Part shown: piece after piece, positions 1 through 37,272 of the stretch
Position numbering within the stretch: the stretch's first letter is position 1
How the letters are laid out: each line of letters opens with the position of its first letter
UHGV virus genome: UHGV-2124252
Origin: a virus
Direction: 5' to 3' (one strand)
DNA length: 38,108 nucleotides
Notes under the pieces: model-generated
What the model was told of the DNA's origin: nothing
What the model saw: the letters and a program-made list of their open reading frames with translations, nothing else
Databases searched by the model: none
Made by a program: the position numbers and the translations under genes

Positions 1-123
1 ATTCGCCTGAAACGTTACGATGCCAAACGTCAGGAGAAAATGCGCGCGGCGCTGGAACAGTTGAAAGGGCTGGAAAATCTCTCTGGCGATCTGTACGAGA
101 AGATCACCAAAGCACTGGCTTGA
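1..123 (+). CDS. pepN: Aminopeptidase N, 3' end (partial, runs off left edge; stop TGA 121-123)
   Basis: In-frame translation ends ...IRLKRYDAKRQEKMRAALEQLKGLENLSGDLYEKITKALA*, matching the remembered C-terminus of enterobacterial PepN; followed by a terminator hairpin. Confidence 0.75.
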   Translation: MRLKRYDAKRQEKMRAALEQLKGLENLSGDLYEKITKALA

Positions 124-165: not shown

Positions 166-426
166 TTACCCCTGTTTTCTCAGGCGAGTTTCAAATTCAC
201 CACGCTGCATCACCCGCTGCAATACTTCCGCTTCCAGCTCTGCTAATCGTACCGACCCTAACCGGCGCGGACGGGGGATATCCACCGTCAAATCCAGACC
301 AATTTTTCCCTCTTCAATTAACAACACCCGGTCAGCCATCGCCACCGCTTCGCTCACATCATGCGTCACCAGCAAGACGGTAAAGCCGTGCTCCTGCCAG
401 AGTGATACAATCAAATCCTGCATCTC
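166..426 (-). pseudogene. ssuB: ABC transporter ATP-binding subunit (aliphatic sulfonate SsuB-like), 3' fragment only; 5' part absent because the prophage end abuts it
   Basis: Translation ...(E)[47 protein letters not shown]... is the H-loop/C-terminal part of an ABC ATPase; Walker A/B and signature motif that must precede it are missing; frame breaks at ~427 where phage end sequence starts. Confidence 0.75.
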
Positions 427-428
427 GA

Positions 429-506
429 TGATGCGCCGCGCGATAAATGCACTCTATCTTGTGCGATAAATGGCATCCACGCGGCGTTTCATTATTTGAA
501 AAAGAA
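429..506. repeat. Prophage terminal region with putative transposase-binding repeats
   Basis: Terminal TGATGCGCCGCGCGATAAATGC resembles the Mu attR terminal site as remembered (TGAAGCGGCGCACGAAAAACGC); direct repeats GCGATAAATG at 440-449 and 463-472 and related GCGGCGTTTCA at 481-491, located between host junction and gin stop. Confidence 0.5.
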
Positions 507-1079
507 TTACATTTCAGGTTGCGTTATGACAGTCCCAACAGGGTGATAGCGGTAGATCGTTGACAGTCCAATATCATAGATAATTGCCAGCCGCTTTCTG
601 TCATACCCTTTCTGGAGCAATCTTGCGATCTGCTCATGCTGCTCCTTCGTCAGTTTCGGGCGACGCCCTCCAACTCTTCCTTGTGATCGCGCAGCAGCCA
701 GTCCTGCCAGCGTGCGCTCAACTATCAGTTCACGCTCCATTTCTGCCAGTGCACCCATCATATGAAAAAAGAACCTTCCCATCGGAGTGCTGGTATCGAT
801 TGAATCCGTCAGACTGCGAAAATTGACACCTTTTGCGCGTAGCTCTTCTGTGAGAGCAATGAGGTGTTTCATTCTTCTACCCAACCGATCCAGCTTCCAG
901 ACCACCAATGTATCCCCTCTTTTAAGGCACTTTAAAGCGCGTTTCAGGCCTGGTCGTTCCGACTTGGTTCCGCTCATTTTGTCCTCAAAAATCTGTTCAC
1001 ATCCTGCGCACATTAATGCATTGCGTTGCAAATCTGTGTTTTGGTCATTTGTTGACACACGTATGTAGCCAATCAGCAT
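507..1079 (-). CDS. gin: Serine DNA invertase, Gin/Hin/Cin/Pin family
   Basis: MLIGYIRVSTNDQNTDLQRNAL...GDTLVVWKLDRLGR...FFFHMMGALAEMERELIVERT..., resolvase catalytic Ser motif and C-terminal HTH; ATG at 1079; adjacent to invertible tail-fibre cassettes. Confidence 0.93.
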   Translation of the reverse strand: MLIGYIRVSTNDQNTDLQRNALMCAGCEQIFEDKMSGTKSERPGLKRALKCLKRGDTLVVWKLDRLGRRMKHLIALTEELRAKGVNFRSLTDSIDTSTPMGRFFFHMMGALAEMERELIVERTLAGLAAARSQGRVGGRRPKLTKEQHEQIARLLQKGYDRKRLAIIYDIGLSTIYRYHPVGTVITQPEM

Positions 1080-1133
1080 TAAAAATACTCCCTTTTGAGT
1101 GGTTAAAGTACTGAGATAATGTGGGGAGGATTT

Positions 1134-1159
1134 GAGAGATAAACGTTGGTTTGGGGGAA
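1134..1159 (+). other. gix-like recombination site A (26 bp, 12-2-12)
   Basis: Right half GGTTTGGGGGAA (reverse complement TTCCCCCAAACC fits gix/hix half-site pattern TTnnCnnAAACC), central TT; starts ~150 bp of sequence identical to sites B and C. Confidence 0.55.
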
Positions 1160-1654
1160 GGCTCGGCGCTGCCCGTTGGTGTACCTGTTCCGTGGCCCAC
1201 TGCCACACCGCCAGCAGGCTGGTTAAAGTGCGACGGGCGCGCCTTTACAAAAGAACAATATCCTGTTCTGGCCAGAGCCTACCCGACCCTCCGCCTGCCT
1301 GATTTACGCGGTGAATTTATTCGTGGTTGGGATGATGGGCGAGGGGTTGATACGAGGCGTTCATTGCTAAGTGGTCAGACTGCAACATTTATTCGTACAG
1401 CTTTGCAGGATTATTACGGTGTCGATCTGACTACTAATGTCAAAGTAGGTATCGCTTATGCTACTGCTGATTCTGTTATAACTGTTGGAAACCCTGCTAA
1501 TCCTAAAGCAGGAGATAATAGCGATTATGTTCCAGCATCATCAGATAACTCCATAACAGGCACTCAAAGGACGGCAGAGGATAATTTTACCGGGGCATGG
1601 ATATCAATGCGCCCCCGCAATGTTGCTTTTAATTACATCGTAAGGGCCGCATAA
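1151..1654 (+). CDS. Alternative tail-fibre C-terminal cassette 1 (promoterless, currently not fused to fibre gene)
   Basis: ORF begins inside crossover site, no ATG/RBS; N-terminal 63 aa identical to C-terminal domain start of active fibre (GEGSALPVGVPVPWPTATPPAGWL...), variable middle, conserved end ...RPRNVAFNYIVRAA. Confidence 0.7.
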   Translation: MGEGSALPVGVPVPWPTATPPAGWLKCDGRAFTKEQYPVLARAYPTLRLPDLRGEFIRGWDDGRGVDTRRSLLSGQTATFIRTALQDYYGVDLTTNVKVGIAYATADSVITVGNPANPKAGDNSDYVPASSDNSITGTQRTAEDNFTGAWISMRPRNVAFNYIVRAA

Positions 1655-2759: not shown

Positions 2760-4282
2760 TAAACTGCCCTCACAATGTAATTAAGTGCAATGCTACGGGG
2801 TCTGACAGTGATACCCTTCGCATACCCGCTTCTGATAGAGGTCAGAATAGTAGCCTGCATACCATTGTCTGACATTGCCACGACAGGATCGCTGAATGTT
2901 GTCCCGTCCGGCATTTTAAAGCTGCCCTCACGAAGGTCTGTAATGGAATCTTCATTGTTGAATCCCATGCCGACTATCCCCGAGGTTCCCGTAGTGTCCT
3001 GGTTATAATAATCCAGCATTGCTGTTCTTAACAGCGTTGCCCCTTGTGCGGACAGCAACTTACGTCCTGTATCAACTTTGCGCCCGTCGTCCCATCCACG
3101 GATAAACTCACCGCGTAAATCGGGAAGACGGAGGGTCGGGTAGGCTCTGGCCAGAACAGGATATTGTTCTTTTGTAAAGGCGCGCCCGTCGCACTTTAAC
3201 CAGCCTGCTGGCGGTGTGGCAGTGGGCCACGGAACAGGTACACCAACGGGCAGCGCCGAGCCTTCCCCCAAACCAAGGTAATTGAGGACATCTTTTATAC
3301 TGCCCTTAGCGATAATAGCGCGACCAATAGCTGTAAGGGTTGCCAGCGCTGCGCGGTCTGCTCCGGTAAAATAAGGCAACCGATCTGCTGCAGTGGCAAG
3401 TCCTGCCAGAGCAGTGAGCGTGGCATCTGCCGGTTGTTTTCCGTTTGCCAGATCGTATGCAGCCTTGACCGCTTTCGGTGTGGCGGCCAGTATTTCAGAC
3501 GTGCTGTTGATGGCACTGCTCAATTGTACGGTGCCTTTTGCCGTCAGCGAGGCAGCAGGCACTCCCGTTATCTGACTCCACGGGTGAGTGTGGCTGACGG
3601 GCGCCTTGCCGGCTGCAAGGTCGTATGCAGCCTTGACCGCCTTCGNNNNNNNNNNNNNNNNNNNNNNNNNNNNNNNAAGGTCGTATGCAGCCTTGACCGC
3701 TTTCGGTGTGGCGGCCAGCGTTTCAGACGTGTTGTTGATGGCACTGCTCAGTTGTACGATCCCTTTACGGGTCGTTGTTGCATCCTGGGCTGTGTATTTT
3801 CCCCGGGCCAGATCATACGCGATTTTCACAGCCTTCGGCGTGGCAGCCTCAGTTTCTGATTGACTGTCCGTGGCGCTGCTCAGTTGTACGGTGCCTTTTG
3901 CCGTCAGTGAAGCCGCAGGCACTCCCGTTATCTGACTCCACGGGTGAGTGTGGCTGGCAGGCGCCTTGCCGGCTGCCAGGTCGTATGCAGCCTTGACCGC
4001 TTTTGGTGTGGCGGCCAGCGTTTCAGAGGTGCTGTTGGTGGCACTGCTCAGTTGGGTGAACCCCTTAGCTGTCAGTGTCGCGTCCGGGTGGTTACGGGAA
4101 CGTACGTGTTCAGCCAGTGACTGTGCGGCTTCCTCCGTTTTCTTCTTCAGCCATTTCGTCCTGTTTGCCAGTTGCCGGGGGGCTCGATTTGATATCCCGT
4201 CTGCACCACCCAGAACCGGATCTGATGTCTCCAGTTGATAGATATTTTCTTCCCACTTTTCTGTTTCATTCAGGTTTCCCAT
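2759..4282 (-). CDS. Tail fibre protein (Mu S / P2 H-like), contains 31-N assembly gap
   Basis: About five tandem ~58-aa repeats (ATPKAVKAAYDL...HTHPWSQITGVPAASLTAKGTVQLSSA...), C-terminal cassette after crossover site C; ATG at 4282 preferred over TTG at 4288. Confidence 0.85.
   Translation of the reverse strand: MGNLNETEKWEENIYQLETSDPVLGGADGISNRAPRQLANRTKWLKKKTEEAAQSLAEHVRSRNHPDATLTAKGFTQLSSATNSTSETLAATPKAVKAAYDLAAGKAPASHTHPWSQITGVPAASLTAKGTVQLSSATDSQSETEAATPKAVKIAYDLARGKYTAQDATTTRKGIVQLSSAINNTSETLAATPKAVKAAYDLXXXXXXXXXXXKAVKAAYDLAAGKAPVSHTHPWSQITGVPAASLTAKGTVQLSSAINSTSEILAATPKAVKAAYDLANGKQPADATLTALAGLATAADRLPYFTGADRAALATLTAIGRAIIAKGSIKDVLNYLGLGEGSALPVGVPVPWPTATPPAGWLKCDGRAFTKEQYPVLARAYPTLRLPDLRGEFIRGWDDGRKVDTGRKLLSAQGATLLRTAMLDYYNQDTTGTSGIVGMGFNNEDSITDLREGSFKMPDGTTFSDPVVAMSDNGMQATILTSIRSGYAKGITVRPRSIALNYIVRAV
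3263..3288 (-). other. gix-like recombination site C (inverted relative to A and B)
   Basis: ttcccccaaacc aa ggtaattgagga on plus strand; lies at the constant/variable boundary of the expressed fibre gene (…LNYLGL|GEGSALP…). Confidence 0.55.
3646..3676. other. Assembly gap (31 N) inside tail-fibre repeat array
   Basis: Run of N flanked on both sides by the same repeat unit (aaggtcgtatgcagccttgaccgc). Confidence 0.95.
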
Positions 4283-9183: not shown

Positions 9184-12134
9184 CAGCGGTACTCCTTACG
9201 TTGTTTCTGAGCCAGCAGACGCTCCAGCATTTTTTCCAGCTCATGCAGACTCATATTCAGGGCACCAGTCAGTCCTGCAGGCGCTGTGGTTTCCCTGCCA
9301 TTGAGGAAAAACTGAGGATTAAAGCTGACCTGGATACCACCAGACGTTCCACCGCCGGTTGCAGCTGCACCACGGCCTGAATATCCGGCAGCCAGGATTT
9401 CAGGCGAGGGGATACGGGGAACATCCGGTGTCATCTCATTTGCCAGACGTTGCCCTGGTAAAATCGATGCCCGGGTGGAGAGCGGAATAGCGGGCATGGA
9501 AGACAAACTATTGATTACGGCTCCGATCGCATTTTTAGCAGACGACATAAACCCATTGATATCGGGCAACGGCATACTGAAGCGAACACCTGAAGTGTTA
9601 TCCCGTATTTCTGGCCCCTGAATGCTCACGGGCATTTTGGGGAGCAGTTCACTGGCCATTCGCTGCCCGGCCAGAGCTGCAAGCGGAGTGGTCCGCTGCA
9701 GGCCAATGGCGGCCCCCTGCGCGATATTGTCACCAAAGCCCATAAACACGCGGCTCAGCGAATGAATGCCCAGCTTTTCGCTGAACCAGCCACTGATGCT
9801 GTCGCCCATTCCGGTTACACTGGATTTGAGCGACTCCCATTTGTTTTTGATACCGTTAATCAGACCATCGACAAGATGGCCACCGAAGTCGGTAAACTTT
9901 GCCGGCAGATCAACACCAAGATATTTCAGCGCAGCTGCAAAGGCTTTATAGAGCAGACCTGCCGGCGACCAGTTAATCAGCAGCTTACCAGTTCCCGCGA
10001 TACCGCCGTTAAAGGCTTCCTGAATGTCAGCCCAGCACTGTTTAAACCAGCTACTGATGCTGTCACCCATTCCGGTTACACTGGATTTGAGCGACCCCCA
10101 TTTGCTTTTGATACCGTTAATCAGACCGTCGATAAGATGGCCACCGAAGTCGGTGAACTTTGCCGGCAGAGCAACGCCGAAATATTTCAGCGCAGCCGCA
10201 AAGGCTTTATAGAGCAGGCCTGCCGGCGACCAGTTAATCAGCAACTTACCAGTTCCCACAATGCCGCCGTTAAAGGCTTCCTGAATGTCAGCCCAGCGCT
10301 GTTTAAACCAACCACTGACAGCCCCCCAGTTGCGGTAGATAAGGTAAGCTGCTGCCGCGACAGCGGTGATAACGAGACCGATGGGATTCATCATCAGCGC
10401 TCGCCCAATCCAGAGAACGGCACGTGCAGCGCTCATAAAACCGCGAACGAGGCTGCCCGCCAGAACTTTGCTGAGTTTCAGTCCTCCGCTGGTCAGTCGG
10501 CTGAATCCAGTGACAAGCCAGCGTAATTTGCCACCTTCTCCGAGTGCGGTAGTCAGTCGATGCCAGTTGGTCCGGAGTAAAACAGCATTTTTCCAGACAC
10601 TTACAAAGGGGGAAATAAGGAGATTCAGCCCCAGTTTGAGACCAACAGTCGCTATCTTAATCGCAAGGAGCGCACTGATGAGCTTAAAAGCCCCACTGAC
10701 AAATTGCGGGTGAGTCGCTACCCAGTGTTTTGCCCCCTGAATGAGTGGAAGCAGTTCCTGAGTCAAAGAAATAAAAGATGGAGCTAATTGATCGCCCAGC
10801 GTAATTGCCAGATCGCGACTGCTGACCATAAGTGTTTTAGTGGCTTCAAGGGGAGATTTCAGTCGCTGATCGTAAGCACTGGCAAGCAAATCGTTATCCG
10901 CAGCCCTGAGAGCACCGGCACGGATCTCTCGATATCTGTCCATGTTGGCCAGCATCGGGCGGATAAATGCCATGACCTGCATATCCGCGAACATATCACC
11001 CAGACCAAAGTTTTTCGCCAGAGCCTGAAGTGCCTCATCTCTTGCCGTATCATTCTTTATTTTCATGGCGGATTTGAAGCCGGCCAGCGCTTCGGGGCTT
11101 TTGGCATTGAGGTAACGTTCTATAACACTCAACATCCCTTCAATCGGAGAGATCCCCGCAGCCTTATAACTCGCAATAGATCCCTGCAAATCAATACCCA
11201 GATCAGCAAACTGTTTCTGAGTATCGCGGGCAAAAATTTTGGTAAGAAAGTTTTTAAAATTATTGGCTGCTTCGTCGGTGGAACCTGCACCGATTTTTGC
11301 TATCTGGAGACTGGCCCCGATTTCAGCAACAGCCTCTTTTCCACTGGCAATACCCGCCATCATTGGGGCCAGGGACTGCATCCACTTGACCTGATCCGGG
11401 ATTTCAAATGACCCCTGGTCACCGGCATAAGCCATAATATTCTGAACGGCACCAAAATCTCTGGCCGCACCTTTCAGGGAGTTTTGCCAGACTGCGGCCA
11501 CTTTTGCCCAGTCCTGAGCAGACGTGCGTGTTGCCGTTGTCGCGCGGGCAATATCCGGCATCAGAAAACCGATATCTGACACATTATCAATATTGTCGCT
11601 GATGAGTGAACCCACCGCCTCCTGCAGCTCATCCTGATACTGATTGTATTTAAGCGCCCAGCCTTTTATCTGTCCGGCAAGTGCATCCCGCGTTTTATTG
11701 TCATATTTTGCGGTGATCGACATATCAATCATTTTGTCCTGAAAAGACATGGACTGCTGAACGGCAGGGGAAACCGTATGATAAACAGTCTGTGCCATGC
11801 CATACGCTTCAATCCCCTGACCATACAGCGCCATGCGGTTAGCTTTCAGCGCATCACTGGTAGCGGATGCCGCTGACAGACGGCGCTGCTGGCGCTCAAT
11901 TTGCTCCATGGTGCGGCTTACCCGCAGCAGCTCGCTGTTGAGATGCTGCATCCGGGAAGAACCCAGTTGACCATAACGTTCTGTTGCACGGGTTAAAGCG
12001 TTCTGACGTTCCTGCAGGCGGCGTGAGGTATCGCTCAGGGAATCAAGCGCACGGCGGGTACCGCTCATTGCAGAACGGAATGTGCTGCCAATCATCCCGC
12101 CGATAACAACGCCGACTGAAAACTGTCCCGACAT
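9183..12134 (-). CDS. Tail tape measure protein
   Basis: 983 aa, helical N-terminus, hydrophobic central segments, internal 87-aa tandem duplication, follows frameshifted chaperone genes; GGAGG RBS. Confidence 0.9.
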   Translation of the reverse strand: MSGQFSVGVVIGGMIGSTFRSAMSGTRRALDSLSDTSRRLQERQNALTRATERYGQLGSSRMQHLNSELLRVSRTMEQIERQQRRLSAASATSDALKANRMALYGQGIEAYGMAQTVYHTVSPAVQQSMSFQDKMIDMSITAKYDNKTRDALAGQIKGWALKYNQYQDELQEAVGSLISDNIDNVSDIGFLMPDIARATTATRTSAQDWAKVAAVWQNSLKGAARDFGAVQNIMAYAGDQGSFEIPDQVKWMQSLAPMMAGIASGKEAVAEIGASLQIAKIGAGSTDEAANNFKNFLTKIFARDTQKQFADLGIDLQGSIASYKAAGISPIEGMLSVIERYLNAKSPEALAGFKSAMKIKNDTARDEALQALAKNFGLGDMFADMQVMAFIRPMLANMDRYREIRAGALRAADNDLLASAYDQRLKSPLEATKTLMVSSRDLAITLGDQLAPSFISLTQELLPLIQGAKHWVATHPQFVSGAFKLISALLAIKIATVGLKLGLNLLISPFVSVWKNAVLLRTNWHRLTTALGEGGKLRWLVTGFSRLTSGGLKLSKVLAGSLVRGFMSAARAVLWIGRALMMNPIGLVITAVAAAAYLIYRNWGAVSGWFKQRWADIQEAFNGGIVGTGKLLINWSPAGLLYKAFAAALKYFGVALPAKFTDFGGHLIDGLINGIKSKWGSLKSSVTGMGDSISSWFKQCWADIQEAFNGGIAGTGKLLINWSPAGLLYKAFAAALKYLGVDLPAKFTDFGGHLVDGLINGIKNKWESLKSSVTGMGDSISGWFSEKLGIHSLSRVFMGFGDNIAQGAAIGLQRTTPLAALAGQRMASELLPKMPVSIQGPEIRDNTSGVRFSMPLPDINGFMSSAKNAIGAVINSLSSMPAIPLSTRASILPGQRLANEMTPDVPRIPSPEILAAGYSGRGAAATGGGTSGGIQVSFNPQFFLNGRETTAPAGLTGALNMSLHELEKMLERLLAQKQRKEYR

Positions 12135-26074: not shown

Positions 26075-26818
26075 ATGACGCAGACACTGAATCCGGTCAT
26101 CACTGTCACCGTGTCCGGTCCTGTGGGCAGCGGTAAAAGTTACATATTGGCGCGGATAGAGGAAGTGGTGAAACAGGAATTCGGGGGCAGCGTCATTGTC
26201 GATGCTGCAGACGTAGATGATGAGCGGCGTATGAGTGGCGATGATCTGACGACCTGGCAGAAGCCACGGGGTGGCACAGTGATCAGGCTGGAGGAATACA
26301 CGGGACAGGGCCTGTTGTCATACGGCGAGGAGCGTATCTGTCGGACGAATGAGCTGCTGGATGTTATATGCCCCACGGGCCGGCAACCCTGGATACTGCC
26401 CGATGCACTGCATGCCACCATTGCGGCACTGATGACAGTTTACGATCAGGAGCTGCTCATGAAGGAGCTACGTAAACTCACCGGTCAGCCAACAGAATGT
26501 TTTTCTGCCCCGAAGTACGGGAAACAGGAACACATCCCGGTGAACACGCTCCCCGTTAACCAGCCTCCCCGGTTCTTCGACGAATACATTCTGACACCGG
26601 AAAATAAAGCTGAGCACGAAGAGATCAAAGCGGCGTTGTTCCGGGAAATCAGGAAGATTGCTGAAATGCAACTGGGGGGCGGGCTGGACAGAGTGATGGC
26701 GAGAGGAGAATGGGAGTCGCTGTTTGAAAGAGTTTCCCCGGAATTACTTCCCCTCGCACTGGCTATCGGGATTATGCAGACAGCGGATAAACCTCACTTA
26801 CGTTCATTAAACACGTAA
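26075..26818 (+). CDS. P-loop NTPase-domain protein, function unknown
   Basis: 247 aa, GAGGAG RBS, Walker A GPVGSGKS near N-terminus; divergent from late operon. Confidence 0.65.
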   Translation: MTQTLNPVITVTVSGPVGSGKSYILARIEEVVKQEFGGSVIVDAADVDDERRMSGDDLTTWQKPRGGTVIRLEEYTGQGLLSYGEERICRTNELLDVICPTGRQPWILPDALHATIAALMTVYDQELLMKELRKLTGQPTECFSAPKYGKQEHIPVNTLPVNQPPRFFDEYILTPENKAEHEEIKAALFREIRKIAEMQLGGGLDRVMARGEWESLFERVSPELLPLALAIGIMQTADKPHLRSLNT

Positions 26819-27198
26819 CGCATAATCCGGGATACGCATTCAGCGATGACTGCATTTTCACCGGTTTTTACTGCATCCAGAAGTGACTCTTTAAATGGTG
26901 CGGGCCGGGGCTGCAGAAGGGTCGGCGTGGCATTGAGCAGACGGAGCGTTTTTTCCGTGAGGACGACATCAGCCGCTCCCACAGCCAGCAACTGAGAGTA
27001 ACGAATATAGCTGTTATCCCGAAGCCATATCAGCGTATCAATAAAATACCGGCACTTTTTCTGGTCGTGATCAACCTGGTCCGGGATATCGAAAAAACCA
27101 GAATAAATCAAAACCTGAGGTGCCGGATGCGTGTTCAGTAATCGGCAGAATATTTTGCCGGTGAGTGCATAAAAATCATCATTTAAGGAGTGCATCAT
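26794..27198 (-). CDS. Hypothetical protein
   Basis: 134 aa, only long ORF in an AT-richer stretch; GGGGA RBS. Confidence 0.5.
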   Translation of the reverse strand: MMHSLNDDFYALTGKIFCRLLNTHPAPQVLIYSGFFDIPDQVDHDQKKCRYFIDTLIWLRDNSYIRYSQLLAVGAADVVLTEKTLRLLNATPTLLQPRPAPFKESLLDAVKTGENAVIAECVSRIMRYVFNERK

Positions 27199-27603: not shown

Positions 27604-28368
27604 ATGAAAATGAAGACATTACCCATCGTTCCATGGATTGGTGGCAAACGTCGCCTGGCAAAACACATCCTGCCGCTGTTTCCGGCGCATGAATGTTATG
27701 TGGAGCCGTTTTGTGGGGCAGCAGCGCTCTATTTTCTTAAGACACCCGGCAAGATCGAAGTCATCAATGATATCAACGGTGAACTGGTGAATCTGTACCG
27801 GGTGGTAAAGCATCACCTGGAAGAATTTGTCCGCCAGTTCAAATGGGCGCTGGTCAGCCGTCAGATCTACAAATGGCTGCAGATCACCCCGGAAGAAACA
27901 CTGACGGATATCCAGCGTGCGGCACGGTTCTACTACCTTCAGAAGCAGGCGTTTGGCGGCAAGGTGGCAGAGCACAGCTTCGGTACCTCCACCACATCCC
28001 CGCCACGCTTCAACCTGCTGCGTATTGAAGAAGAACTGTCAGCAGCACACCTGCGGCTTTCCAGAACAGTCATAGAACACATGGACTGGCAACAGTGCAT
28101 TGAGCGTTATGATCGTCCGCACACACTGTTCTACTGCGACCCACCGTACCTGGGTACGGAAGGCTATGGTGTGGATTTTCCTGAAGGGAACTACTCGCGG
28201 CTGGCAGAGCTGGCCCGGTGCATCAGAGGAAAAATGATAATTTCGGTGAACGATATCCCACAGATGCGCGAGGTGTTCACTGGACTGAACATACAGACAG
28301 TGAACATCAACTACAGTCTGGCGGGGAAATCCACGCCGCGCCGTGAACTGGTAATCTGCAACTTCTGA
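27604..28368 (+). CDS. DNA N6-adenine methyltransferase (Dam-like, D12 class)
   Basis: N-terminal AdoMet-binding FCGAAALYF and catalytic DPPY motif. Confidence 0.9.
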   Translation: MKMKTLPIVPWIGGKRRLAKHILPLFPAHECYVEPFCGAAALYFLKTPGKIEVINDINGELVNLYRVVKHHLEEFVRQFKWALVSRQIYKWLQITPEETLTDIQRAARFYYLQKQAFGGKVAEHSFGTSTTSPPRFNLLRIEEELSAAHLRLSRTVIEHMDWQQCIERYDRPHTLFYCDPPYLGTEGYGVDFPEGNYSRLAELARCIRGKMIISVNDIPQMREVFTGLNIQTVNINYSLAGKSTPRRELVICNF

Positions 28369-28484: not shown

Positions 28485-28823
28485 TCAGCCTGCGAGTTTG
28501 CTTGGTTTGGGGTGAATGAAGACTTTGCCGACCTCAAGAATTGCCCTCCGTTGTTCGGGGCTCATTTCGTCGAATGCATCCATTAACTCTTTCTTTTCTT
28601 GTGACACATAAGGTGCAACAACAGGCTGACTCCGCACCCCAGTAACTACATACAAAATATCTACACCGATTTCTGATAGTGCAGATAACTGCACTGCAGT
28701 AGGAGAAGTGCGATCTTTTTCCCAATCAATGAAAGTTCTCTTTGCCACACCTATAGCATCAGCCAACCCTTGCTGTGTAAGAGATAGACGCTCTCTTTCT
28801 TCTTTAATACGTAACCCGATCAT
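28485..28823 (-). CDS. Phage repressor, XRE-family HTH
   Basis: MIGLRIKEERERLSLTQQGLADAIGVAKRTFIDWEKDRTSP... HTH near N-terminus; divergent from early operon; start assigned to ATG 28823 (longer ORF to 28976 would overlap early promoter/RBS). Confidence 0.7.
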   Translation of the reverse strand: MIGLRIKEERERLSLTQQGLADAIGVAKRTFIDWEKDRTSPTAVQLSALSEIGVDILYVVTGVRSQPVVAPYVSQEKKELMDAFDEMSPEQRRAILEVGKVFIHPKPSKLAG

Positions 28824-28847
28824 GTGAGTTTTTCTGCACTCTTTAAG

Positions 28848-28876
28848 TTGACTGGTGAGGTAATCTGCACCATAAT
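28848..28876 (+). promoter_or_regulatory. Candidate early promoter (sigma70-like)
   Basis: TTGACT (28848-28853), 17-bp spacer, CATAAT (28871-28876) upstream of Cro/Ner-like gene; flanked by repeated TCTGCAC motifs. Confidence 0.5.
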
Positions 28877-28923
28877 CTATCACACATAAGGCAAACATCA
28901 TTGCATCAACAAAGGAGACAACG

Positions 28924-29112
28924 ATGACTGCAGAACAAGTCAAAGCTCTCTTCCGCCAGCGCGGGATCACTTTCACCCGCTGGGCAGAAGAAAACGGCTA
29001 CAACCGCAATGAGGTATACCGCGTTCTCAATGGGCAGACCAAAGCCCGTTACGGTAAATCCCATGAAATCGCCGTGAAGTTGGGGCTGAAATCAACAGCT
29101 CAGGCAGCCTGA
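28924..29112 (+). CDS. Small Cro/Ner-like DNA-binding regulator (first early gene)
   Basis: 62 aa, AAAGGAG RBS, basic helix-turn-helix-like core; divergent from repressor. Confidence 0.65.
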   Translation: MTAEQVKALFRQRGITFTRWAEENGYNRNEVYRVLNGQTKARYGKSHEIAVKLGLKSTAQAA

Positions 29113-29164
29113 AGATTTTGAGTCTTTGTAAAAGGTTATCACATATCGCAAAAGAGGTATGCAG

Positions 29165-29473
29165 ATGAGTAAGACGAATGTTTCAAGCTCCGGCAGTCGC
29201 ATCCTCCGGGTACTCAAAGCGCTGCGCGGTCATGCCCTGAACGGTATTTCCAACGGTGAACTGGCGGCAGCACTGCACGAGTCACCGGCAAACATCAACC
29301 GGGCACTCAACACCCTCATTGAAGAAGGGTTGGCCCTGAAACTGGAAAACGGGCGTTTCGCGCCGGGCATCCAGTTACTGCAGATCGCTATGGCCCACAG
29401 TAACGAGATGGCACGTGCACAGGATCGCATTAACGAAATCAACCAACGTGTCATTTCAGGTAGTCGTTTGTAA
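29165..29473 (+). CDS. Winged-helix-like putative regulator
   Basis: 102 aa from ATG 29165 (AAGAGG RBS). Confidence 0.5.
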   Translation: MSKTNVSSSGSRILRVLKALRGHALNGISNGELAAALHESPANINRALNTLIEEGLALKLENGRFAPGIQLLQIAMAHSNEMARAQDRINEINQRVISGSRL

Positions 29474-29483
29474 GGAGTAATAA

Positions 29484-30395
29484 ATGGGACGCACCAAATC
29501 ACCGATTAACACTGAACTGAACGCCGAGGTACCGCTGTCGGATGATCTCAATGTCAGTCTGAACGCCATGACACAGCATCGTATGGAGATCATGCAGCAG
29601 TTTGGCGATGGTCAGCCCTATGAGCGTGATCGCATAGTTCATGAGGCTCGGTTTTATATGGCACAGAGCGCTGAGGCCATGCTGGAAGCAGGTAAACGAC
29701 TTATTATTCTCAAAGAAAATGAACCTCACGGGGACTTTGTTGGAATTGTAGAAGAACAACTTGGTCTGCATGTGCGCGCAGCACAACGAATGATGAAAGC
29801 ATCTTTGAAATACCTTTCACCAAAACTAGAGCCAAAAGCGACAACGTTGTCGCTTTTAGGTAAGGCAAAATTATTTGAACTTGTTGCTGAAGATGACGAC
29901 GACCTTGCTGAACTGGCCGGCGGTGGCACAGTTGCCGGACTGACGCTTGACGATGTTGATCGCATGTCAGTACGTGAATTGCGTCAGGCCCTGCGCGAAG
30001 CGCGCGAAACCAACGCAGCACAACAGCGCGTACTCGCCGACAAAAATGAAAAAATAGACTCACTCTCCACCAGACTGGAGAAGAAATCCCGTATTCAGCC
30101 GCCTGAGCCTGATGAAGAGGTTAAGAAGCTGCGGGCGGAAGTGACAGCATTAGCGGTTGAGGCGGAATCTGCTATCGCCGTTCGACTGTCCAGCGCTTTT
30201 GAGACGCTGTGCGCATATTGTGCTGAAAACATGATTGATACCCCCAGAGACTTCATGGCAGGCCTGGTCTGTCAACTGGAAAGCACAGCGCGTAGCCTGC
30301 GCTCCACATTTGACCTGCCGGATGAGCCAACAGGCAATGCCGCGCCTTCATGGCTGACTGAGCCGACGCCACAGATTAACGGGCTGGAGGCATAA
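29484..30395 (+). CDS. Hypothetical early protein
   Basis: 303 aa, acidic coiled-coil centre, immediately upstream of transposase. Confidence 0.55.
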   Translation: MGRTKSPINTELNAEVPLSDDLNVSLNAMTQHRMEIMQQFGDGQPYERDRIVHEARFYMAQSAEAMLEAGKRLIILKENEPHGDFVGIVEEQLGLHVRAAQRMMKASLKYLSPKLEPKATTLSLLGKAKLFELVAEDDDDLAELAGGGTVAGLTLDDVDRMSVRELRQALREARETNAAQQRVLADKNEKIDSLSTRLEKKSRIQPPEPDEEVKKLRAEVTALAVEAESAIAVRLSSAFETLCAYCAENMIDTPRDFMAGLVCQLESTARSLRSTFDLPDEPTGNAAPSWLTEPTPQINGLEA

Positions 30396-30398
30396 CCA

Positions 30399-32168
30399 AT
30401 GAATGCTGCCCTGACTGAACGACTGGTTTATGTCGCCCGCGCGGCACGTGACGCGGGGCATGGTAAACGCGGTGCAATATACGACGCTGCCTGTGCTGAA
30501 CTTGGCATGTCCCGCGCCACTCTGCTGCGCAGGCTGAAGGAGGTCTCTGTGACTGATAAACGCAAAAAACGCGCTGATGCCGGACGCAGCGCCCTGACCC
30601 GCGACGAAGCCGCGCTGATATCTGCCACACTGCGTGAGGCCACCCGCAAGAACGGTAAACGCCTCTATTCCATCGCAGATGCAGTGGAAACCCTGCGGGC
30701 TAACGGCTTTATCACCGCAGGCAGAACAGATGAAACCACCGGTGAGTTTTTCCCGTTGTCTGAAGATGCCATCAGCCGTGCTCTGCGTAACTATGGCCTG
30801 CACCCGGAACAACTGGATGCTCCTGCACCGCATACCGAAGTGGCCAGTCTGCACCCCAATCATGTCTGGCAGATTGACGCCTCACTCTGCACGCTTTACT
30901 ACCTGAGCAATGGACATAAAGGGCTGCAGGTGATGGACAGCGCGAAGTTCTACAAGAACAAGCCCGCTAACCTTGCCCGTATCGCCAGTGACCGCGTGTG
31001 GAGTTACGAGATTACCGACCATGCCAGCGGCTGGATTTACGTTGAGTATGTGACGGGCGCGGAATCAGGTGAGAACCTGTGTTCTGTGCTTATCAACGCC
31101 ATGCAGGAGCGTGGCGGCGCAGACGTGCTGCACGGCGTGCCAAAAATACTCTATCTCGACCCCGGCTCGGCAAACACCGCGGGTATGACGAAAAACATGT
31201 GCCGCTCACTGGGCATCGACCTGATAGCGCACAAGCCGCATAACGCCCGCGCCACCGGACAGGTGGAAAAGGCGCGGGACATTATCGAACGCAAGCTGGA
31301 GCCGGGTCTGAAGTTCCGGCCGGTTCACAGTCTGGAAGAACTCAATGCGCTGGCCGCGAAATGGCGCAGCCACTTTAACGCCACGGCTGTTCACAGCCGC
31401 CACGGTAAAACCCGCACGGATATCTGGCTGAAGATTACTGCTGAGCAGCTGAAAAAAGCGCCTTCCGTTGAGGTATGTCGTGAACTGGCTGTGGCGGCAC
31501 CAGAACTCCGCAAAGTCACGCCAAAACTTCGTGTCTCGTTCCGGGGCACTGAATTTGACGTATCAACGGTACCGGGCGTACTGGTCGGTGAAAAACTGAT
31601 GATTACCCGTAACCCGTGGCGCAGCGATGTGGCACAGGTGGTTCTGACCGGTGAGGACGGCCACGAGACGTTCTTCCTGGTCGAAGAAGTCAGAAAGAAC
31701 GAGTTTGGCTTTGCTGAAGGCGCGGCGGTATTTGGCGAAAGTTACAAAGCCCTGCCGGAAACCCCGGCGCAGATGGCGGCAAAAGAAACCGAAGCGCTGG
31801 TCACCGGTACAGACAACGCCGCAGATGCAGCTGCCGCACGCAAGGCGAAGGCGCTGCCGTTCGGCGGGCGGCTTGACCCATATAAACATATTGATGACGC
31901 CACACTTCCGGCCTATATGCCGAAGCGAGGTCAGGCCTCTGACGTACGCGGGCCGCGCACTGAACAACGTCCCATGACTCATGTGGAGGCCGCGAAAGCC
32001 CTGCGCGATAAGTTCAGCGCCGACGGCCTTACCTGGACGCCGGAACATTACCGCCAGTTAACGGCACAGTATCCGGACGGCGTACCGGAAGCCGCACTGG
32101 ATGAAGTCATGGCCACGCTGACCACGCCGGCCCGCAGCAGCGTTATCAGCATTGTTAACGGCAACTGA
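30399..32168 (+). CDS. DDE transposase A (Mu A / TnsB / TniA family core)
   Basis: 589 aa; N-terminal HTH, catalytic core beginning HVWQIDAS; followed by ATPase partner gene. Confidence 0.88.
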   Translation: MNAALTERLVYVARAARDAGHGKRGAIYDAACAELGMSRATLLRRLKEVSVTDKRKKRADAGRSALTRDEAALISATLREATRKNGKRLYSIADAVETLRANGFITAGRTDETTGEFFPLSEDAISRALRNYGLHPEQLDAPAPHTEVASLHPNHVWQIDASLCTLYYLSNGHKGLQVMDSAKFYKNKPANLARIASDRVWSYEITDHASGWIYVEYVTGAESGENLCSVLINAMQERGGADVLHGVPKILYLDPGSANTAGMTKNMCRSLGIDLIAHKPHNARATGQVEKARDIIERKLEPGLKFRPVHSLEELNALAAKWRSHFNATAVHSRHGKTRTDIWLKITAEQLKKAPSVEVCRELAVAAPELRKVTPKLRVSFRGTEFDVSTVPGVLVGEKLMITRNPWRSDVAQVVLTGEDGHETFFLVEEVRKNEFGFAEGAAVFGESYKALPETPAQMAAKETEALVTGTDNAADAAAARKAKALPFGGRLDPYKHIDDATLPAYMPKRGQASDVRGPRTEQRPMTHVEAAKALRDKFSADGLTWTPEHYRQLTAQYPDGVPEAALDEVMATLTTPARSSVISIVNGN

Positions 32169-32178
32169 GGAGGGATAC

Positions 32179-33345
32179 ATGCTGGTACTGAAGCAGCAAC
32201 TGAAAGAGGCCCGTATTCCACAGGCGGTGGTGGCGAGAGCTGTCGATGTTTCTGAGGCCACGCTGGCCCAGATTGTGAATCATAACGCGTGGCCCCGCAC
32301 CAGCCCCGGAGAAGTGCGCCGGCGTCTTGCGTCCTGGCTGGAAAGTCAGGGGATTGATACAACGAAGAGTTTTGATGCTGTACAGGGCGCAGCCACGCCC
32401 CGTACAGCGGGTACCACAGATAAAACGAGCCTCAGTGAGGAAGAGAATATGTTACTCAAAAAACAGGTGTTATTTCCAGCAACCAAAAAAGCGTTTGGTC
32501 TTTTCCGTGACCCGTTCGCCGATGAAGCCATGCAGGGTTCTGATGATGTGTTCACCACCCCGGACATTCGCTACGTGCGTGAGGCGTTGTACCAGACAGC
32601 CCGTCATGGTGGGTTTATGGCCGTCATCGGTGAGTCCGGTGCGGGTAAATCCACGCTGCGCCGCGACCTGACTGAACGTATCAACCGCGAGAATGCGCCG
32701 GTAATTGTTATCGAGCCATACATCATCGCTATGGAAGACAACGATGTGAAAGGGAAAACCCTGAAGGCAGCAGCGATTGCCGAAGCCATTATCAGTACCA
32801 TCGCACCACTGGAAAGCATCAGACGCAGTCAGGACGCCCGCTTTCGCCAGTTGCATCGCGTCCTGAAAGACAGCAGCCAGGCGGGGTTCAGCCACGTTTT
32901 GGTGATTGAGGAGGCCCACAGTCTGCCCATTCCGACACTGAAACACCTCAAACGCTTTTTTGAGCTGGAGTCCGGTTTCAAAAAACTGCTGTCCATCGTG
33001 CTGATTGGCCAGCCGGAACTGGCGACAAAACTGTCTGAACGCAATATGGAAGTCCGTGAAGTCGTTCAGCGTTGTGAGGTGGTCGAACTTCTGCCTCTGG
33101 ACAATAACCTTGAAGAATTTCTGACGTTCAAACTGCAACGGGCCGGTAAACAACTGACGGACATTATGGACGCCAGCGCAGTGGATGCCATACGTGCCCG
33201 CCTGAGCAATCCGGGAAGTCATCGTAAAAATATGGTCAGCCTGCTGTATCCGCTGGCCGTCAGTAACCTGGTGATAGCCGCCATGAATCTGGCCGCTGAA
33301 ATCGGGGTTCCACAGGTCAACGCTGACGTTGTCAAAGGGGTTTAA
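32179..33345 (+). CDS. Transposition ATPase B (Mu B / TniB-like AAA+)
   Basis: Walker A GESGAGKST, Walker B-like HVLVIEEAH; start ATG 32179 with GAGGAGGG RBS. Confidence 0.85.
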   Translation: MLVLKQQLKEARIPQAVVARAVDVSEATLAQIVNHNAWPRTSPGEVRRRLASWLESQGIDTTKSFDAVQGAATPRTAGTTDKTSLSEEENMLLKKQVLFPATKKAFGLFRDPFADEAMQGSDDVFTTPDIRYVREALYQTARHGGFMAVIGESGAGKSTLRRDLTERINRENAPVIVIEPYIIAMEDNDVKGKTLKAAAIAEAIISTIAPLESIRRSQDARFRQLHRVLKDSSQAGFSHVLVIEEAHSLPIPTLKHLKRFFELESGFKKLLSIVLIGQPELATKLSERNMEVREVVQRCEVVELLPLDNNLEEFLTFKLQRAGKQLTDIMDASAVDAIRARLSNPGSHRKNMVSLLYPLAVSNLVIAAMNLAAEIGVPQVNADVVKGV

Positions 33346-33347
33346 TA

Positions 33348-33617
33348 ATGAAATCCACCACAGGTATCAACCAGCAAATCAGCAAAGTGCAGTCAGCCAT
33401 TATGGCGCTTAAGGCGACGAACACGGATGTACAAAGCATCACCATCAGGGGTAACAAACCTGTCATCCGCGTTTCCCGGAGTGCGCATTGCATGCGCATG
33501 CTTGAGCAGGGAAAGGCCTGTTATCTGTATACCGGACATGACCAAAGGGGATATTTCCGTCAGGGCGTTTTCGAACTGCACGGCTGTCGCGTCGTGTGGC
33601 CGGAATCTTTGTGGTAA
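33348..33617 (+). CDS. Hypothetical early protein
   Basis: 89 aa, RBS AGGGG. Confidence 0.5.
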   Translation: MKSTTGINQQISKVQSAIMALKATNTDVQSITIRGNKPVIRVSRSAHCMRMLEQGKACYLYTGHDQRGYFRQGVFELHGCRVVWPESLW

Positions 33618-33644
33618 TCAGCACAACAGGAGGAGTCATAAAAT

Positions 33645-34175
33645 ATGGCAAAAAGTACAAAAGGGGCAAAACGTATCAAAGCCGCAGCAGCACTCTGGGT
33701 GCCGGGGACACGCGAAGAGGTCATTGAGGGAATCAGACTGCTTGGTGACGCGCAACGTGAACTGGTCAGGGCTGAAACAGAAATGAATGACACCATTGGC
33801 GACATCACTGCACGTTATGCCCCGCTCACCGAGAGCCTGAAAAAACGCATGACCGAACTGCAGTCCGGTATCCAGACATGGTGTGAGGCGCACCGTGATG
33901 AACTGACCGGCAACGGGAAGGTGAAGTTCGCTAACCTCACCACCGGCGAGGTGCAGTGGCGAAACCGTCCGCCGTCAGTCAGCATTCGCGGGGCGGATAA
34001 TGTCATTGAACTGCTGAGACGTCTGGGGCTTGAGCGCTTTATTCGTGTAAAGGAGGAAATAAATAAAGATGCCATTCTGAATGAAAAAGAGGCTGTGAAA
34101 AATATTCCCGGTATTACCATAAAAAGTGATATTGAGGATTTTTCAATAATTCCTTTTGAGCAGGATGTGCAGTAA
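33645..34175 (+). CDS. gam: Host-nuclease inhibitor Gam (Mu Gam-like)
   Basis: MAKSTKGAKRIKAAAALWVP... and C-terminal ...DFSIIPFEQ closely resemble Mu Gam as remembered. Confidence 0.85.
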   Translation: MAKSTKGAKRIKAAAALWVPGTREEVIEGIRLLGDAQRELVRAETEMNDTIGDITARYAPLTESLKKRMTELQSGIQTWCEAHRDELTGNGKVKFANLTTGEVQWRNRPPSVSIRGADNVIELLRRLGLERFIRVKEEINKDAILNEKEAVKNIPGITIKSDIEDFSIIPFEQDVQ

Positions 34176-34272
34176 ACACACCACGTTAATTATTTAATAA
34201 AAACATTTTCTTTTTTATTCCGGTGTCAGCGCCGTGGGCTTCTGCACGCCGGAAACAGAGGAGAATTAAATT

Positions 34273-34467
34273 ATGATATTTAAATGTATTCAGTGCGAGA
34301 GGGATATAACAGCCCTGCGTTTTCACAGCGCCATCGCCGTGATGTCCGGTAAGTATCACATACCTGCAGTACGTGTCACCCTTGTCTGCCCGTACTGCAG
34401 CCAGCATTTTTCGGCGGACGTGCCCGTCATGGAATTCTCCCGCCCTGACAGGGAGGACGCGCAATGA
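34273..34467 (+). CDS. Small zinc-ribbon-like protein
   Basis: CxxC ... CxxC (C5,C8,C39,C42); GAGGAG RBS. Confidence 0.5.
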   Translation: MIFKCIQCERDITALRFHSAIAVMSGKYHIPAVRVTLVCPYCSQHFSADVPVMEFSRPDREDAQ

Positions 34468-34736
34468 TTACCCCACAGGAAGCACGACAGCGCACCCGAA
34501 CCCTTGTTGAACACTATGTCAACGAGTGTGAATGCCGCGACCTCACCGATGTGAAGCACGTCCTGACGGCGCTAATCAGCATGGCCACACAGGCCATTGT
34601 GGCGACCAACGGAAAGGAGGCTGCCCTGCAGGTACTGATGAACACACTCACCCACACGGCAGAGCATGAGGTGCCGTACCGGATGGAAACCACTGCAGAA
34701 GGCGGCCTGCACATCACCGTCAGCCGGAAGCACTGA
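34464..34736 (+). CDS. Hypothetical early protein
   Basis: 90 aa, ATGA-coupled. Confidence 0.45.
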   Translation: MITPQEARQRTRTLVEHYVNECECRDLTDVKHVLTALISMATQAIVATNGKEAALQVLMNTLTHTAEHEVPYRMETTAEGGLHITVSRKH

Positions 34737-34745
34737 GGGCGCGGC

Positions 34746-35042
34746 ATGACACGAAACACCGAACTCACCCGCACCGCCCTCTACCGTCTGGCCCTGCAGC
34801 GTTTCGGGCCGGACGCACAGGCCCTGAAACTGGCAGAAGAGGCCGCTGAACTGGCGGCCAGTGCCGCCCGCAACCTGAACGGACAGGGCAGCGAAAGTGA
34901 CCTCGCGGCAGAGCTGGCAGACGTGGAAATCATGACAGAGCAACTGCGCCTTCAGGGGATGGACCGGCTGATTGACTTCCACAAACAGAAAAAACTGGAA
35001 CGTCTGGCTGCACGACTGGGTGTGATTTACACGAACGAGTAA
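34746..35042 (+). CDS. MazG-like nucleotide pyrophosphohydrolase-like small protein (tentative)
   Basis: EExxE ... ExxD-type acidic helices (LAEEAAELA ... ELADVEIM). Confidence 0.4.
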   Translation: MTRNTELTRTALYRLALQRFGPDAQALKLAEEAAELAASAARNLNGQGSESDLAAELADVEIMTEQLRLQGMDRLIDFHKQKKLERLAARLGVIYTNE

Positions 35043-35056
35043 CCGGGAGGCATTCA

Positions 35057-35272
35057 ATGGCTGACATACTCAGGGAAATCACCGCATGGATACTGATTCT
35101 TACTGGCCTGGCGACATGCCTCAGTGCGGGGGCAGCCCTGGCTGCCCTGCTGATGCACATAACAACACAGTGGTTATGGGAAAAGCTTAAAGCAGCATAC
35201 AGCCTGAAAGAGCTGTCCGACGCTGTCCGGGCATGGAAACGGCAGAAAAATACCGGAGATACAGAACAATGA
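35057..35272 (+). CDS. Small membrane protein
   Basis: 71 aa with one hydrophobic helix; GGGAGG RBS. Confidence 0.5.
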   Translation: MADILREITAWILILTGLATCLSAGAALAALLMHITTQWLWEKLKAAYSLKELSDAVRAWKRQKNTGDTEQ

Positions 35273-35952
35273 CAGACCAGAATAAACACATTGAGAAACT
35301 GAAAAAGTTGCTGGCGCTGGCCGCATCCGGCAACCCGCACGAGGCCGCTCTGGCACTGCGCCGAGCCCGTAAACTGATGGATGTTCACGGCATCACACAT
35401 TCCGACATTGCTATGAGTGATATTGATGAAACCATCAGTCATTACTGGCCGACAGGCAGTCTCCGTCCACCGCGCTACATGCTGGGCCTGATGAACATCA
35501 TCCGCGAGGCATTTGGTGTTAACTCCATCATTCACCCCGGCACGCATCAGTCTGTGGGGTTCTACGGCAACCGGGAACGTACGGCACTGGCTGCATACAC
35601 CTGGGAAGTGCTGGCCCGTCAGCTGAAAAAGGCGCGTCAGCAGTATATCAGTGCACAGAACAAAAGAATAAAAACCGCCACCCGCACCAGCCGTGGAGAC
35701 CAGTTTGCCGAAGGCTGGGTGCTGGCCGTTATCAGTGAAATACAGTCCTTCGCCCTGACCGATGACGAACGTGAACTGATGCAGCAGTGGCTGGAACATA
35801 AATACCCGCAGACGCAAACCACCAGGGCGCGTAAACCGGGAAGAAGCCGCAATGGCGACGCCTCGCGCTATGCGGGGTTTCGTGAAGGGCAGAACGTCAG
35901 ACTGCACCGCCCGGTCAGTGGGCAGGAACAACAGAAACTGGAGGCCAGATGA
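35269..35952 (+). CDS. Hypothetical early protein (DUF2786-like N-terminus)
   Basis: MTDQNKHIEKLKKLLALAASGNPHEAALALRRARKLM... ; ATGA overlap with upstream gene. Confidence 0.55.
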   Translation: MTDQNKHIEKLKKLLALAASGNPHEAALALRRARKLMDVHGITHSDIAMSDIDETISHYWPTGSLRPPRYMLGLMNIIREAFGVNSIIHPGTHQSVGFYGNRERTALAAYTWEVLARQLKKARQQYISAQNKRIKTATRTSRGDQFAEGWVLAVISEIQSFALTDDERELMQQWLEHKYPQTQTTRARKPGRSRNGDASRYAGFREGQNVRLHRPVSGQEQQKLEAR

Positions 35953-36179
35953 TTACGCTATCAGGTAAAAGCCGGAAATTAAAAGCCTGCCGAATATCTG
36001 CCAGATACCTTTTTGCCCGCGCCTTTTTTAAGAACGTCAGGCCGGGGATCACAATTGGTGTTATTGCCGGACGCGAACAGGTTGAAAAATACATGTCAGG
36101 TGCATGGTGGAATAACGACCCTGTCATTGCTGCCCGTAATATTCATATCGAATGGGGAGGTATTCAGAATGACTACTGA
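35949..36179 (+). CDS. Hypothetical small protein
   Basis: 76 aa, ATGA-coupled. Confidence 0.4.
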   Translation: MITLSGKSRKLKACRISARYLFARAFFKNVRPGITIGVIAGREQVEKYMSGAWWNNDPVIAARNIHIEWGGIQNDY

Positions 36180-36375
36180 AACCATTGTCTGTTTTCTTTT
36201 CTGGTATATGTACGCAGGATCATGCAGCGCAAGACTTCATCGTTCCCTGGGCTATGGCAGGCACTACGACACCGCGCATTACATCCTGTACATGACCGCC
36301 GTCATGTTGTTCTGGCCAGTCACCCTGCCAGCTGCAACCGACATTGTTGCCGACAGACTGAAAAAAAGGAGATGA
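36169..36375 (+). CDS. Small membrane protein
   Basis: 68 aa, two hydrophobic helices, GGAGG RBS. Confidence 0.45.
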   Translation: MTTETIVCFLFWYMYAGSCSARLHRSLGYGRHYDTAHYILYMTAVMLFWPVTLPAATDIVADRLKKRR

Positions 36376-36376
36376 T

Positions 36377-37196: not shown

Positions 37197-37239
37197 TTCC
37201 TGCTTGTTAAAGTCCTTTCAAAAATCTCCTTATTGTATA

Positions 37240-37272
37240 AAAGCACGGTAGACCCCTTACCGTGCTTTTTTT
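37240..37272 (+). terminator. Rho-independent terminator after mor-like gene
   Basis: aaagcacggta gacccct taccgtgcttt followed by TTTTTTT. Confidence 0.75.

Follow-up and report, generated by a model that had tools for sequence, protein, structure and literature searches.

From position 429 to its last base, the window (the whole stretch of DNA analysed here, 38,108 nucleotides in length) almost certainly consists of a temperate transposable phage that belongs to the BcepMu group (genus Bcepmuvirus) and was inserted by DDE transposition at about codon 172 of ssuB; the phage is 38.5 kb in size, and only its last 196 bp are missing. The complete genome of E. coli ZH063 contains a copy that is 99.9% identical to the window and supplies the end that lies outside it; in that genome the prophage is 38,545 bp in length (L001 1333-39877). 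Copies of the phage at other sites have the same terminal nucleotides and are flanked by 6-bp duplications that differ from site to site, and the transposase and ATPase are of the type found in BcepMu. The element is of a known kind, as the group was described in 2004 and has already been catalogued in E. coli, and it introduces no new biological principle. The features of the window are collected in Table 1.

Table 1. Positions of host and phage features within the window.
Feature	Position	Strand	Basis or remark
3' end of pepN (host)	1-123	+	Translation ends ...YEKITKALA*; annotated pepN in ZH063
ssuB 3' fragment (host), truncated by the phage insertion	166-428	-	ORF translation; ssuB pseudogene in the ZH063 annotation
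Target-site duplication TCTCGA, 6 bp	423-428	.	Second copy at L001 39878-39883
Right terminus (5'-TG) and first proposed transposase-binding site R1 (TGATGCGCCGCGCGATAAATGCA)	429-451	+	Core GCGATAAATG at 440-449
Second proposed transposase-binding site R2 (TTGTGCGATAAATGGC)	459-474	+	Core at 463-472; 23 bp from R1
Third conserved subterminal block (CGCGGCGTTTCATTATTTGAAAAAGAATTACA)	480-511	+	Overlaps the invertase stop codon (507-509)
Late region	429-27198	-	RefSeq annotation of the ZH063 copy; collinear with BcepMu genes 21-52
Gin/Cin/Pin-type DNA invertase, small serine recombinase, 190 aa	507-1079	-	Pfam Resolvase (2e-50) and HTH_7
Invertible tail-fibre segment	1141-3279	.	Inverted repeats; flipped in the ECAMP047 copy
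Putative repressor (HTH_3)	28485-28976	-	Pfam HTH_3; position equivalent to BcepMu gp17; divergent from the early operon
DDE (rve) transposase, BcepMu gp09 type, 589 aa	30399-32168	+	Pfam rve; identity to gp09
AAA+ (AAA_22/ExeA-type) ATPase, 388 aa	32179-33345	+	Pfam AAA_22, 3.6e-20; identity to gp08
Gam	33645-34175	+	Pfam Phage_Mu_Gam, 1e-40
GemA	36377-36826	+	Pfam GemA, 3e-40
Mor	36798-37196	+	Pfam Mor, 1e-43

Host junction and extent of the prophage

On the minus strand, the ssuB frame is open between ...EMQDL and the stop codon at 166-168. The adjoining codon, at 429-427, is ATC where native ssuB has CTC; thus, host DNA stops at 428 and the phage begins at T429, from which it reads TGATGCGCCGCGCGATAAATGC. 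The original prediction, made from the letters of the window, had the ssuB frame intact to ...LEMQDL and replaced by prophage DNA at 427-429, which fits a start at T429 and was accurate to within one or two bases. In ZH063, the right junction consists of host sequence ending in ...CATCTCGA followed directly by TGATGCG..., and the left junction of phage sequence ending in ...TCTGATCA followed directly by TCTCGAGTCG... in the host. When the two flanks are joined with one copy of TCTCGA removed, an uninterrupted SsuB reading frame is obtained, as expected for a prophage end that lies within this gene. A comparison with uninterrupted ssuB alleles agrees, as 5398 of 5426 complete E. coli genomes contain the reconstructed empty site as one contiguous sequence.

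The insertion in ssuB was found in 22 of the same 5426 genomes. Since the junction is identical (100%) in all 22, it is not an assembly artefact. Positions 1-1100 and 36000-38108 of the window are likewise 100% identical to these E. coli chromosomes, several of which are labelled O25:H4.

The window ends 196 bp before the far, or left, end of the phage as it stands in the complete genome of ZH063. The far end reads ...TTCATTTATCTCATGTCTGATCA and continues into the host as TCTCGAGTCGCG...; beyond it lies the missing 5' part of ssuB, where it had been predicted, and then ssuC, ssuD, ssuA and ssuE. The exact limits of the prophage (T429; 38,545 bp in ZH063) are thereby supplied, having been left unmarked by automated annotation. 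The window itself is a draft sequence with a run of 31 N at 3646-3676, inside the repetitive tail-fibre gene, and differs from the ZH063 copy at two points in length. The tail-fibre gene is 408 bp shorter in the window, and the tape-measure gene has, at about 9780-10320, an in-frame difference of 261 nt that is consistent with a collapsed tandem repeat.

In the rebuilt empty site, the split point of ssuB falls between the Walker B/D-loop region and the H-loop. The fragment that remains in the window retains the H-loop region onward and has lost Walker A, the signature and the Walker B part. Cut at this position, the sulfonate importer's ATPase should no longer function in the 22 carriers, and ssuB, the last gene of the ssuEADCB operon, is expected to be inactivated throughout the carrier lineage. 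Loss of aliphatic-sulfonate uptake would therefore be expected in this sublineage of 22 among 5426 complete genomes, and the insertion could act as a lineage marker.

The shared junction also bears on whether the phage in ssuB is still active. The transposition scars could be genuine and the ssuB copy nevertheless fixed and defective, giving rise to neither further transposition nor particles. An insertion held by 22 genomes at 100% identity, several of them O25:H4, fits vertical inheritance in one lineage; moreover, ZH063 and two other copies have a tape-measure gene that is annotated as a pseudogene, and it is in this gene that the window and ZH063 differ by 261 nt. Against this, the tape-measure gene is an open ORF of 983 aa in the window, the two ends are intact, and so are the ORFs of the transposase, the ATPase and every other morphogenesis gene. 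Near-identical phages are also found at many other sites, and one of them, PhiKM, is deposited as a phage genome record. A defective copy is therefore regarded as somewhat unlikely for the window, although the copy in ZH063 may no longer make viable phage given its tape-measure pseudogene.

Target duplications and insertion sites

A duplication of 5 bp matching CTCGA at 424-428 or neighbouring bases had been anticipated. There is indeed a duplication at that place; its length, however, is 6 bp rather than 5, as TCTCGA (423-428) is found on both sides of the ZH063 prophage. Four further phage copies were retrieved, of which the three compared in full are 97.6-99.0% identical. The five independent insertions are located in ssuB, between rstA and rstB (strain M-17), between yodD and dsrB (an ST131 strain), between clbH and clbG (ECAMP047) and in yejF (LR-31). 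Every one of them has a 6-bp duplication, the five sequences being TCTCGA, GCTGGT, ACAGCG, CCGCGC and AATAGG. The phage termini consist of the same nucleotides in all five, starting with TGATGCG... and ending with ...TCTGATCA, that is, TG...CA. Since the bases outside TG and CA vary from one insertion to the next, the duplication is 6 bp and not 5 bp with an additional base from the phage.

Five insertions with TG...CA ends and differing 6-bp duplications establish transposition as opposed to site-specific integration, in keeping with the original prediction. A serine recombinase is encoded only 78 bp from the junction, and site-specific integration by this enzyme would offer another explanation for a prophage end at this place. 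The protein, however, is a Gin/Cin-type invertase of 190 aa without the large C-terminal domain of serine integrases, and its gene sits beside the inverted repeats of 226-229 nt that bound the tail-fibre cassettes. Furthermore, the insertion sites vary across genomes and have no common core sequence, and each is accompanied by a target duplication, which is not a product of site-specific recombination. In other genomes, the phage ends adjoin at least a dozen different host genes; in addition to those above, the flanking genes include yqhA, torZ, a rimK-family gene, fadM, yfiB, xylR, yjfY, php and others. The presence of the same ends beside so many host genes rules out site-specific integration, which is given next to no credence here. 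Transposition accounts for the variable sites and for the duplications alike.

The 6-bp duplications of the E. coli BcepMu-like phages, as compared with 5 bp for Mu, are of practical use when prophage ends are called by their duplication. Of note, the ECAMP047 copy between clbH and clbG lies in the colibactin (pks) island (L005 4046-4208 and about 42312), where it may disturb colibactin synthesis.

Architecture of the phage ends

Two direct repeats had been reported to follow the terminus. These correspond to GCGATAAATG, of which the window of 38,108 bases contains two copies and no others, at 440-449 and 463-472 on the plus strand, with a spacing of 23 bp. For the degenerate pattern GMGATAAATR, shuffled sequences are expected to contain 0.18 matches, and two matches were reached in one of 100 shuffles. 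Read inward, the right end is composed of TGATGCGCCGC GCGATAAATG CACTCTATCTTGT GCGATAAATG GCATCC and the left end of TGATCAGACAT GAGATAAATG AAGGGGGATCCGT GAGATAAATA ACGAA. The far terminus, which ends in ...CA, thus presents the motif as GAGATAAATG/A in inverted orientation, and at both ends its two copies occupy offsets 12-21 and 35-44 from the terminus. An inverted copy of the terminal motif at the other end had been foreseen, and it is situated in the 196 bp beyond the window.

The pattern of conservation in related ends points to the same elements. Five right-end variants that are 77-86% identical and found at different sites have kept the terminal TGATGCG and the two copies of the motif, and vary in the R1-R2 spacer and in the sequence outside the terminus. 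R2 is kept as GTG(C/A)GATAAAT in the divergent variants, and both motif copies are likewise conserved in three left-end variants. By analogy with Mu, the G(C/A)GATAAAT repeats are proposed to be transposase-binding sites. Mu has three transposase-binding sites per end; here, clear repeat sites were found to number only two per end. A candidate for a further site is the block at 480-511, in which TTTCAnTATnnGnAAAAGAATTACA is kept across the five variants despite diverging flanks. This block may be a third transposase site, or else an accessory or host-factor site.

Several smaller elements were noted near the ends. The sequence GAAAAAGAATT(A/T)CA is found near both termini, at a distance of 70-83 bp on the right and of 89-99 bp on the left (L001 39779-39789); the two copies have the same absolute orientation and so are not inverted between the ends. 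A 12-nt inverted repeat formed by 429-440 and 480-491 (10/12) was considered as a hairpin or as an inverted third site and was rejected, as its inner arm is lost without compensation in the LR-31 variant. A scan of window positions 300-1300 for promoters and terminators found none. Near the left end, L001 39679-39756 contains a 20-nt inverted repeat, CATTGGAATCATCCTTTTTG / CAGAAAGGATGATTTCAATG, with arms that are 90% complementary and 38 nt apart. It covers the start codon and upstream sequence of a 53-aa ORF, 120-200 bp from the left terminus, and could be a regulatory hairpin.

Transposase, ATPase and early operon

The transposase and BcepMu gp09 share 69% identity over 581 aa, and the adjoining ATPase is 59% identical to BcepMu gp08 over 404 aa. 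At E<=10, the transposase was matched by rve as its only Pfam family, whereas MuA, used as a control, was matched by DDE_2, HTH_Tnp_Mu_1, HTH_Tnp_Mu_2 and Mu-transpos_C. By BLASTP, there is no similarity between the transposase and MuA (E = 0.48) or between the ATPase and MuB (E = 2.4). Below threshold, the transposase has NCBIfam matches to IS481 and IS21 transposases. A sequence search of solved structures with both proteins returned only marginal matches to the retroviral-integrase core and to generic P-loop proteins.

The two genes belong to an early operon on the plus strand (29159-38108) which, together with Gam, GemA and Mor, also encodes an HTH protein and a DUF3102 protein. The divergent gene at 28485-28976 is an ORF called from the window, the RefSeq CDS at this place being shorter, and from its domain and position it is inferred to be the repressor. 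The ATPase is presumed to be a target-capture partner, and as such a functional analogue of MuB.

With these components, a course of transposition may be outlined by analogy with Mu. The transposase would bind the G(C/A)GATAAAT repeats at both ends, and perhaps also the block at 480-511, after which it would pair the ends and expose the 3'-OH of each terminal ...CA. The AAA+ ATPase would then assist in joining the ends to the target with a 6-bp stagger, and repair of the gaps by the host would leave the TCTCGA duplication on either side of the prophage. Lytic growth, if it follows Mu and the DDE transposons that work with an ATPase partner, would proceed by replicative transposition and headful packaging.

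Comparison with Mu

The resemblance of the phage terminus to the right end of Mu was part of the original prediction and holds up when the sequences are compared. Set against the Mu right end (NC_000929.1) in an ungapped alignment, the first 22 nt of the phage agree at 17 of 22 positions; the figure for the Mu left end is 9 of 22. Among the approximately 76,000 22-mers of the window, counting both strands, one other reaches 17/22, at 30449. This second match to Mu R1 lies inside the transposase coding sequence without the GATAAAT motif and was judged to be due to chance. At a terminus specified beforehand, a match of 17/22 is unlikely to be a chance event (about 1e-5 per position). The core CGATAAATGC is also present in Mu R2.

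There are further likenesses between the two phages. Both insert at essentially random sites, in the present case breaking a host gene, both have TG...CA termini and repeated subterminal sites, and both carry an invertase and an invertible tail-fibre segment beside the right end (gin and the G segment in Mu). Homologues of Gam, GemA and Mor are also shared. Taken together, these features could suggest a true relative of Mu (Muvirus) that is moved by MuA and MuB with a duplication of 5 bp. This reading is highly improbable. All five insertions have a duplication of 6 bp, the transposase matches Pfam rve alone where the MuA control matches four Mu families, and neither MuA nor MuB has a BLASTP counterpart among the proteins of the phage that were compared with them. 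The gene order differs as well: the early operon is inverted and diverges from the late genes, whereas the early and late genes of Mu run in one direction from its left end. In addition, the tail genes are P2-like, and the right end lacks a com/mom module. The description of the element as Mu-like is therefore sound with respect to its terminal sequence and lifestyle but not with respect to kinship. On its gene content, the element is judged to be a phage of the BcepMu group that resembles Mu in the way it lives and is not a relative of Mu itself.

What the similarity of the ends might mean is a separate matter. A common logic of end recognition may link two lineages of transposable phages that have transposases dissimilar by BLASTP and that differ in the geometry of strand transfer, with a 6-bp stagger in one and a 5-bp stagger in the other; this proposal is doubtful and is offered tentatively. 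Such a shared logic could reflect either deep common ancestry of an end-binding module or convergence. If true, E. coli would harbor a second widespread transposable-phage system, mechanistically distinct from Mu, that could be used and studied alongside it. The right end is present in about 12% of complete E. coli genomes.

Affiliation with the BcepMu group

The Burkholderia phage BcepMu was reportedly described by Summer et al. in J Mol Biol (340:49) in 2004; the host of the present phage, unlike that of BcepMu, is E. coli. As in BcepMu (NC_005882), the early arm is divergent, and the two genomes are collinear gene by gene when BcepMu is set against ZH063 and the window. On one strand the shared order runs from Mor and GemA to the ATPase, the transposase and regulators, and on the other strand are the lysis, head, P2-like tail and tail-fibre genes. 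The right-end cargo is different, being an acyltransferase in BcepMu and an invertase with a multi-cassette invertible tail-fibre segment in the present phage.

The likeness extends to the termini. BcepMu has TG...CA ends with G(C/A)GATA(A/T)(A/T)T at offsets 12-20 and 35-43 of both, its termini being TGAAGCGCGGCGCGATATTTC...GCGCGATAAAT and TGAAGAGAGGTGAGATATTTC...GCGCGATATTT. Its right end has GCGCGATAAAT at the R2 offset and GAAAGAAATTGCA at an offset similar to that of the block at 480-511, and its right terminus matches the first 22 nt of the phage at 16 of 22 positions. TG...CA ends have been described as characteristic of BcepMu relatives in the KS10 paper (PMC2628397).

Among deposited phages, the closest is Escherichia phage PhiKM, which is filed under Bcepmuvirus and has a transposase that is 98.8% identical. 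The transposase of Klebsiella phage KP12 is 93.7% identical, those of phiE255 and BcepMu about 69%, and those of Pseudomonas phages such as JD18, Fc02 and JBD25 about 57%. Earlier work has reported prophages of the genus Bcepmuvirus from ST131 isolates (10.1101/2022.05.07.487787), and the inducible prophages of gut Pseudomonadota isolates include some that were assigned to Bcepmuvirus (PMC12629997).

The 6-bp duplication is documented for the E. coli phage and not for the whole BcepMu family. A scan of genome contigs with a pattern matching both BcepMu ends located the ends of a BcepMu prophage in B. cenocepacia NCTC13227, with junctions of …gagcatg/TGAAG… (L015 6179) and …CTTCA/aattgg… (L018 2926). 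This one prophage has no flanking direct repeat (agcatg vs aattgg), an absence that may stem from a rearrangement next to it. No duplication length for BcepMu was found in the literature searched, a body of papers to which the original 2004 description did not belong.

In the BcepMu record, gp09 is labelled 'Tn552/IS1604 rve transposase'. Tn552 makes duplications of 6-7 bp and has an ATP-binding partner. Compared with elements of the Tn552/IS1604 and IS481/IS21 types, the transposase and ATPase pair is here part of a complete 38.5-kb tailed-phage genome.

Late region and invertible tail-fibre segment

The late region combines a Mu-like head (a DUF935 portal, Mu F-like and G-like proteins) with P2-like tail and baseplate genes, a terminase and lysis genes. 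Along the minus strand (27198-507), the order is lysis, Mu-like head, P2-like tail, tail fibres and finally the invertase, which the ZH063 annotation lists as a recombinase family protein.

The invertase serves the tail-fibre segment next to it. Inverted repeats of 226-229 nt pair 1143-1368 with 3054-3279 and 1657-1885 with 3051-3279. The expressed C-terminus of the tail fibre and the assembly gene are on the minus strand, and two silent alternative C-terminal cassettes are on the plus strand (1151-1654 and 1665-2138). Each cassette opens with a repeat of approximately 228 nt that is inverted relative to 3051-3279 of the expressed fibre gene, and thus the design gives three alternative C-termini. 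A single tail-fibre assembly gene is visible (2145-2759).

Between the lysis genes and the repressor (window 27604-28368 and 26075-27198) are a gene for a D12-class DNA adenine methylase and a few small unknown genes. In the M-17 copy, different genes are found there, including one for a nucleoid-associated protein, which marks this place as a variable cargo region.

Related ends in other genomes and plasmids

Of 5426 complete E. coli genomes, 650 contain the right end together with the region of the invertase stop codon (window 429-560), whereas only 118 contain the left end of this phage (its last 576 bp) at a coverage of at least 80%. From these counts, the population is mosaic, with several left arms joined to one common right end.

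At least three P1-sized plasmids (about 89-95 kb) carry the phage right terminus from T429 onward. In one of these, p702_18_3 (NZ_CP074704.1, L002 251-1218), the shared stretch corresponds to window 427-1359 and comprises the terminus, the invertase and the beginning of the first tail-fibre cassette; it is 99.9% identical over window 427-1100 and 94% over 427-1359. Immediately outside the terminus, the plasmid reads ATGCTTATTGGATACATTCGCATATCAACAAATGA, which represents the opening 11-12 codons of a Cin-type invertase (MLIGYIRISTND) and is directly preceded by a holin gene. A holin gene followed by cin is the P1 arrangement. The stretch looks like the fossil of a phage that transposed into the cin gene of a P1-like plasmid, the rest of which would have been lost by recombination inside the invertible tail-fibre segment to leave a swapped invertase and tail-fibre module.

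A trace of a left end was noted in plasmid pSA186_2 (L009 2501-2644). An unannotated stretch of approximately 145 bp shares 89.7% identity with the final 150 bp of the left end and includes both GAGATAAAT sites; the outermost 10 bp or so differ, reading …CATTGATGCA as against …CATGTCTGATCA. The stretch adjoins IS remnants and a LysR gene. A similar stretch is present in about 140 further records, many of them plasmids of 145-295 kb, many from avian or extraintestinal E. coli, and some of them chromosomes. It is probably the relic end of a related phage.
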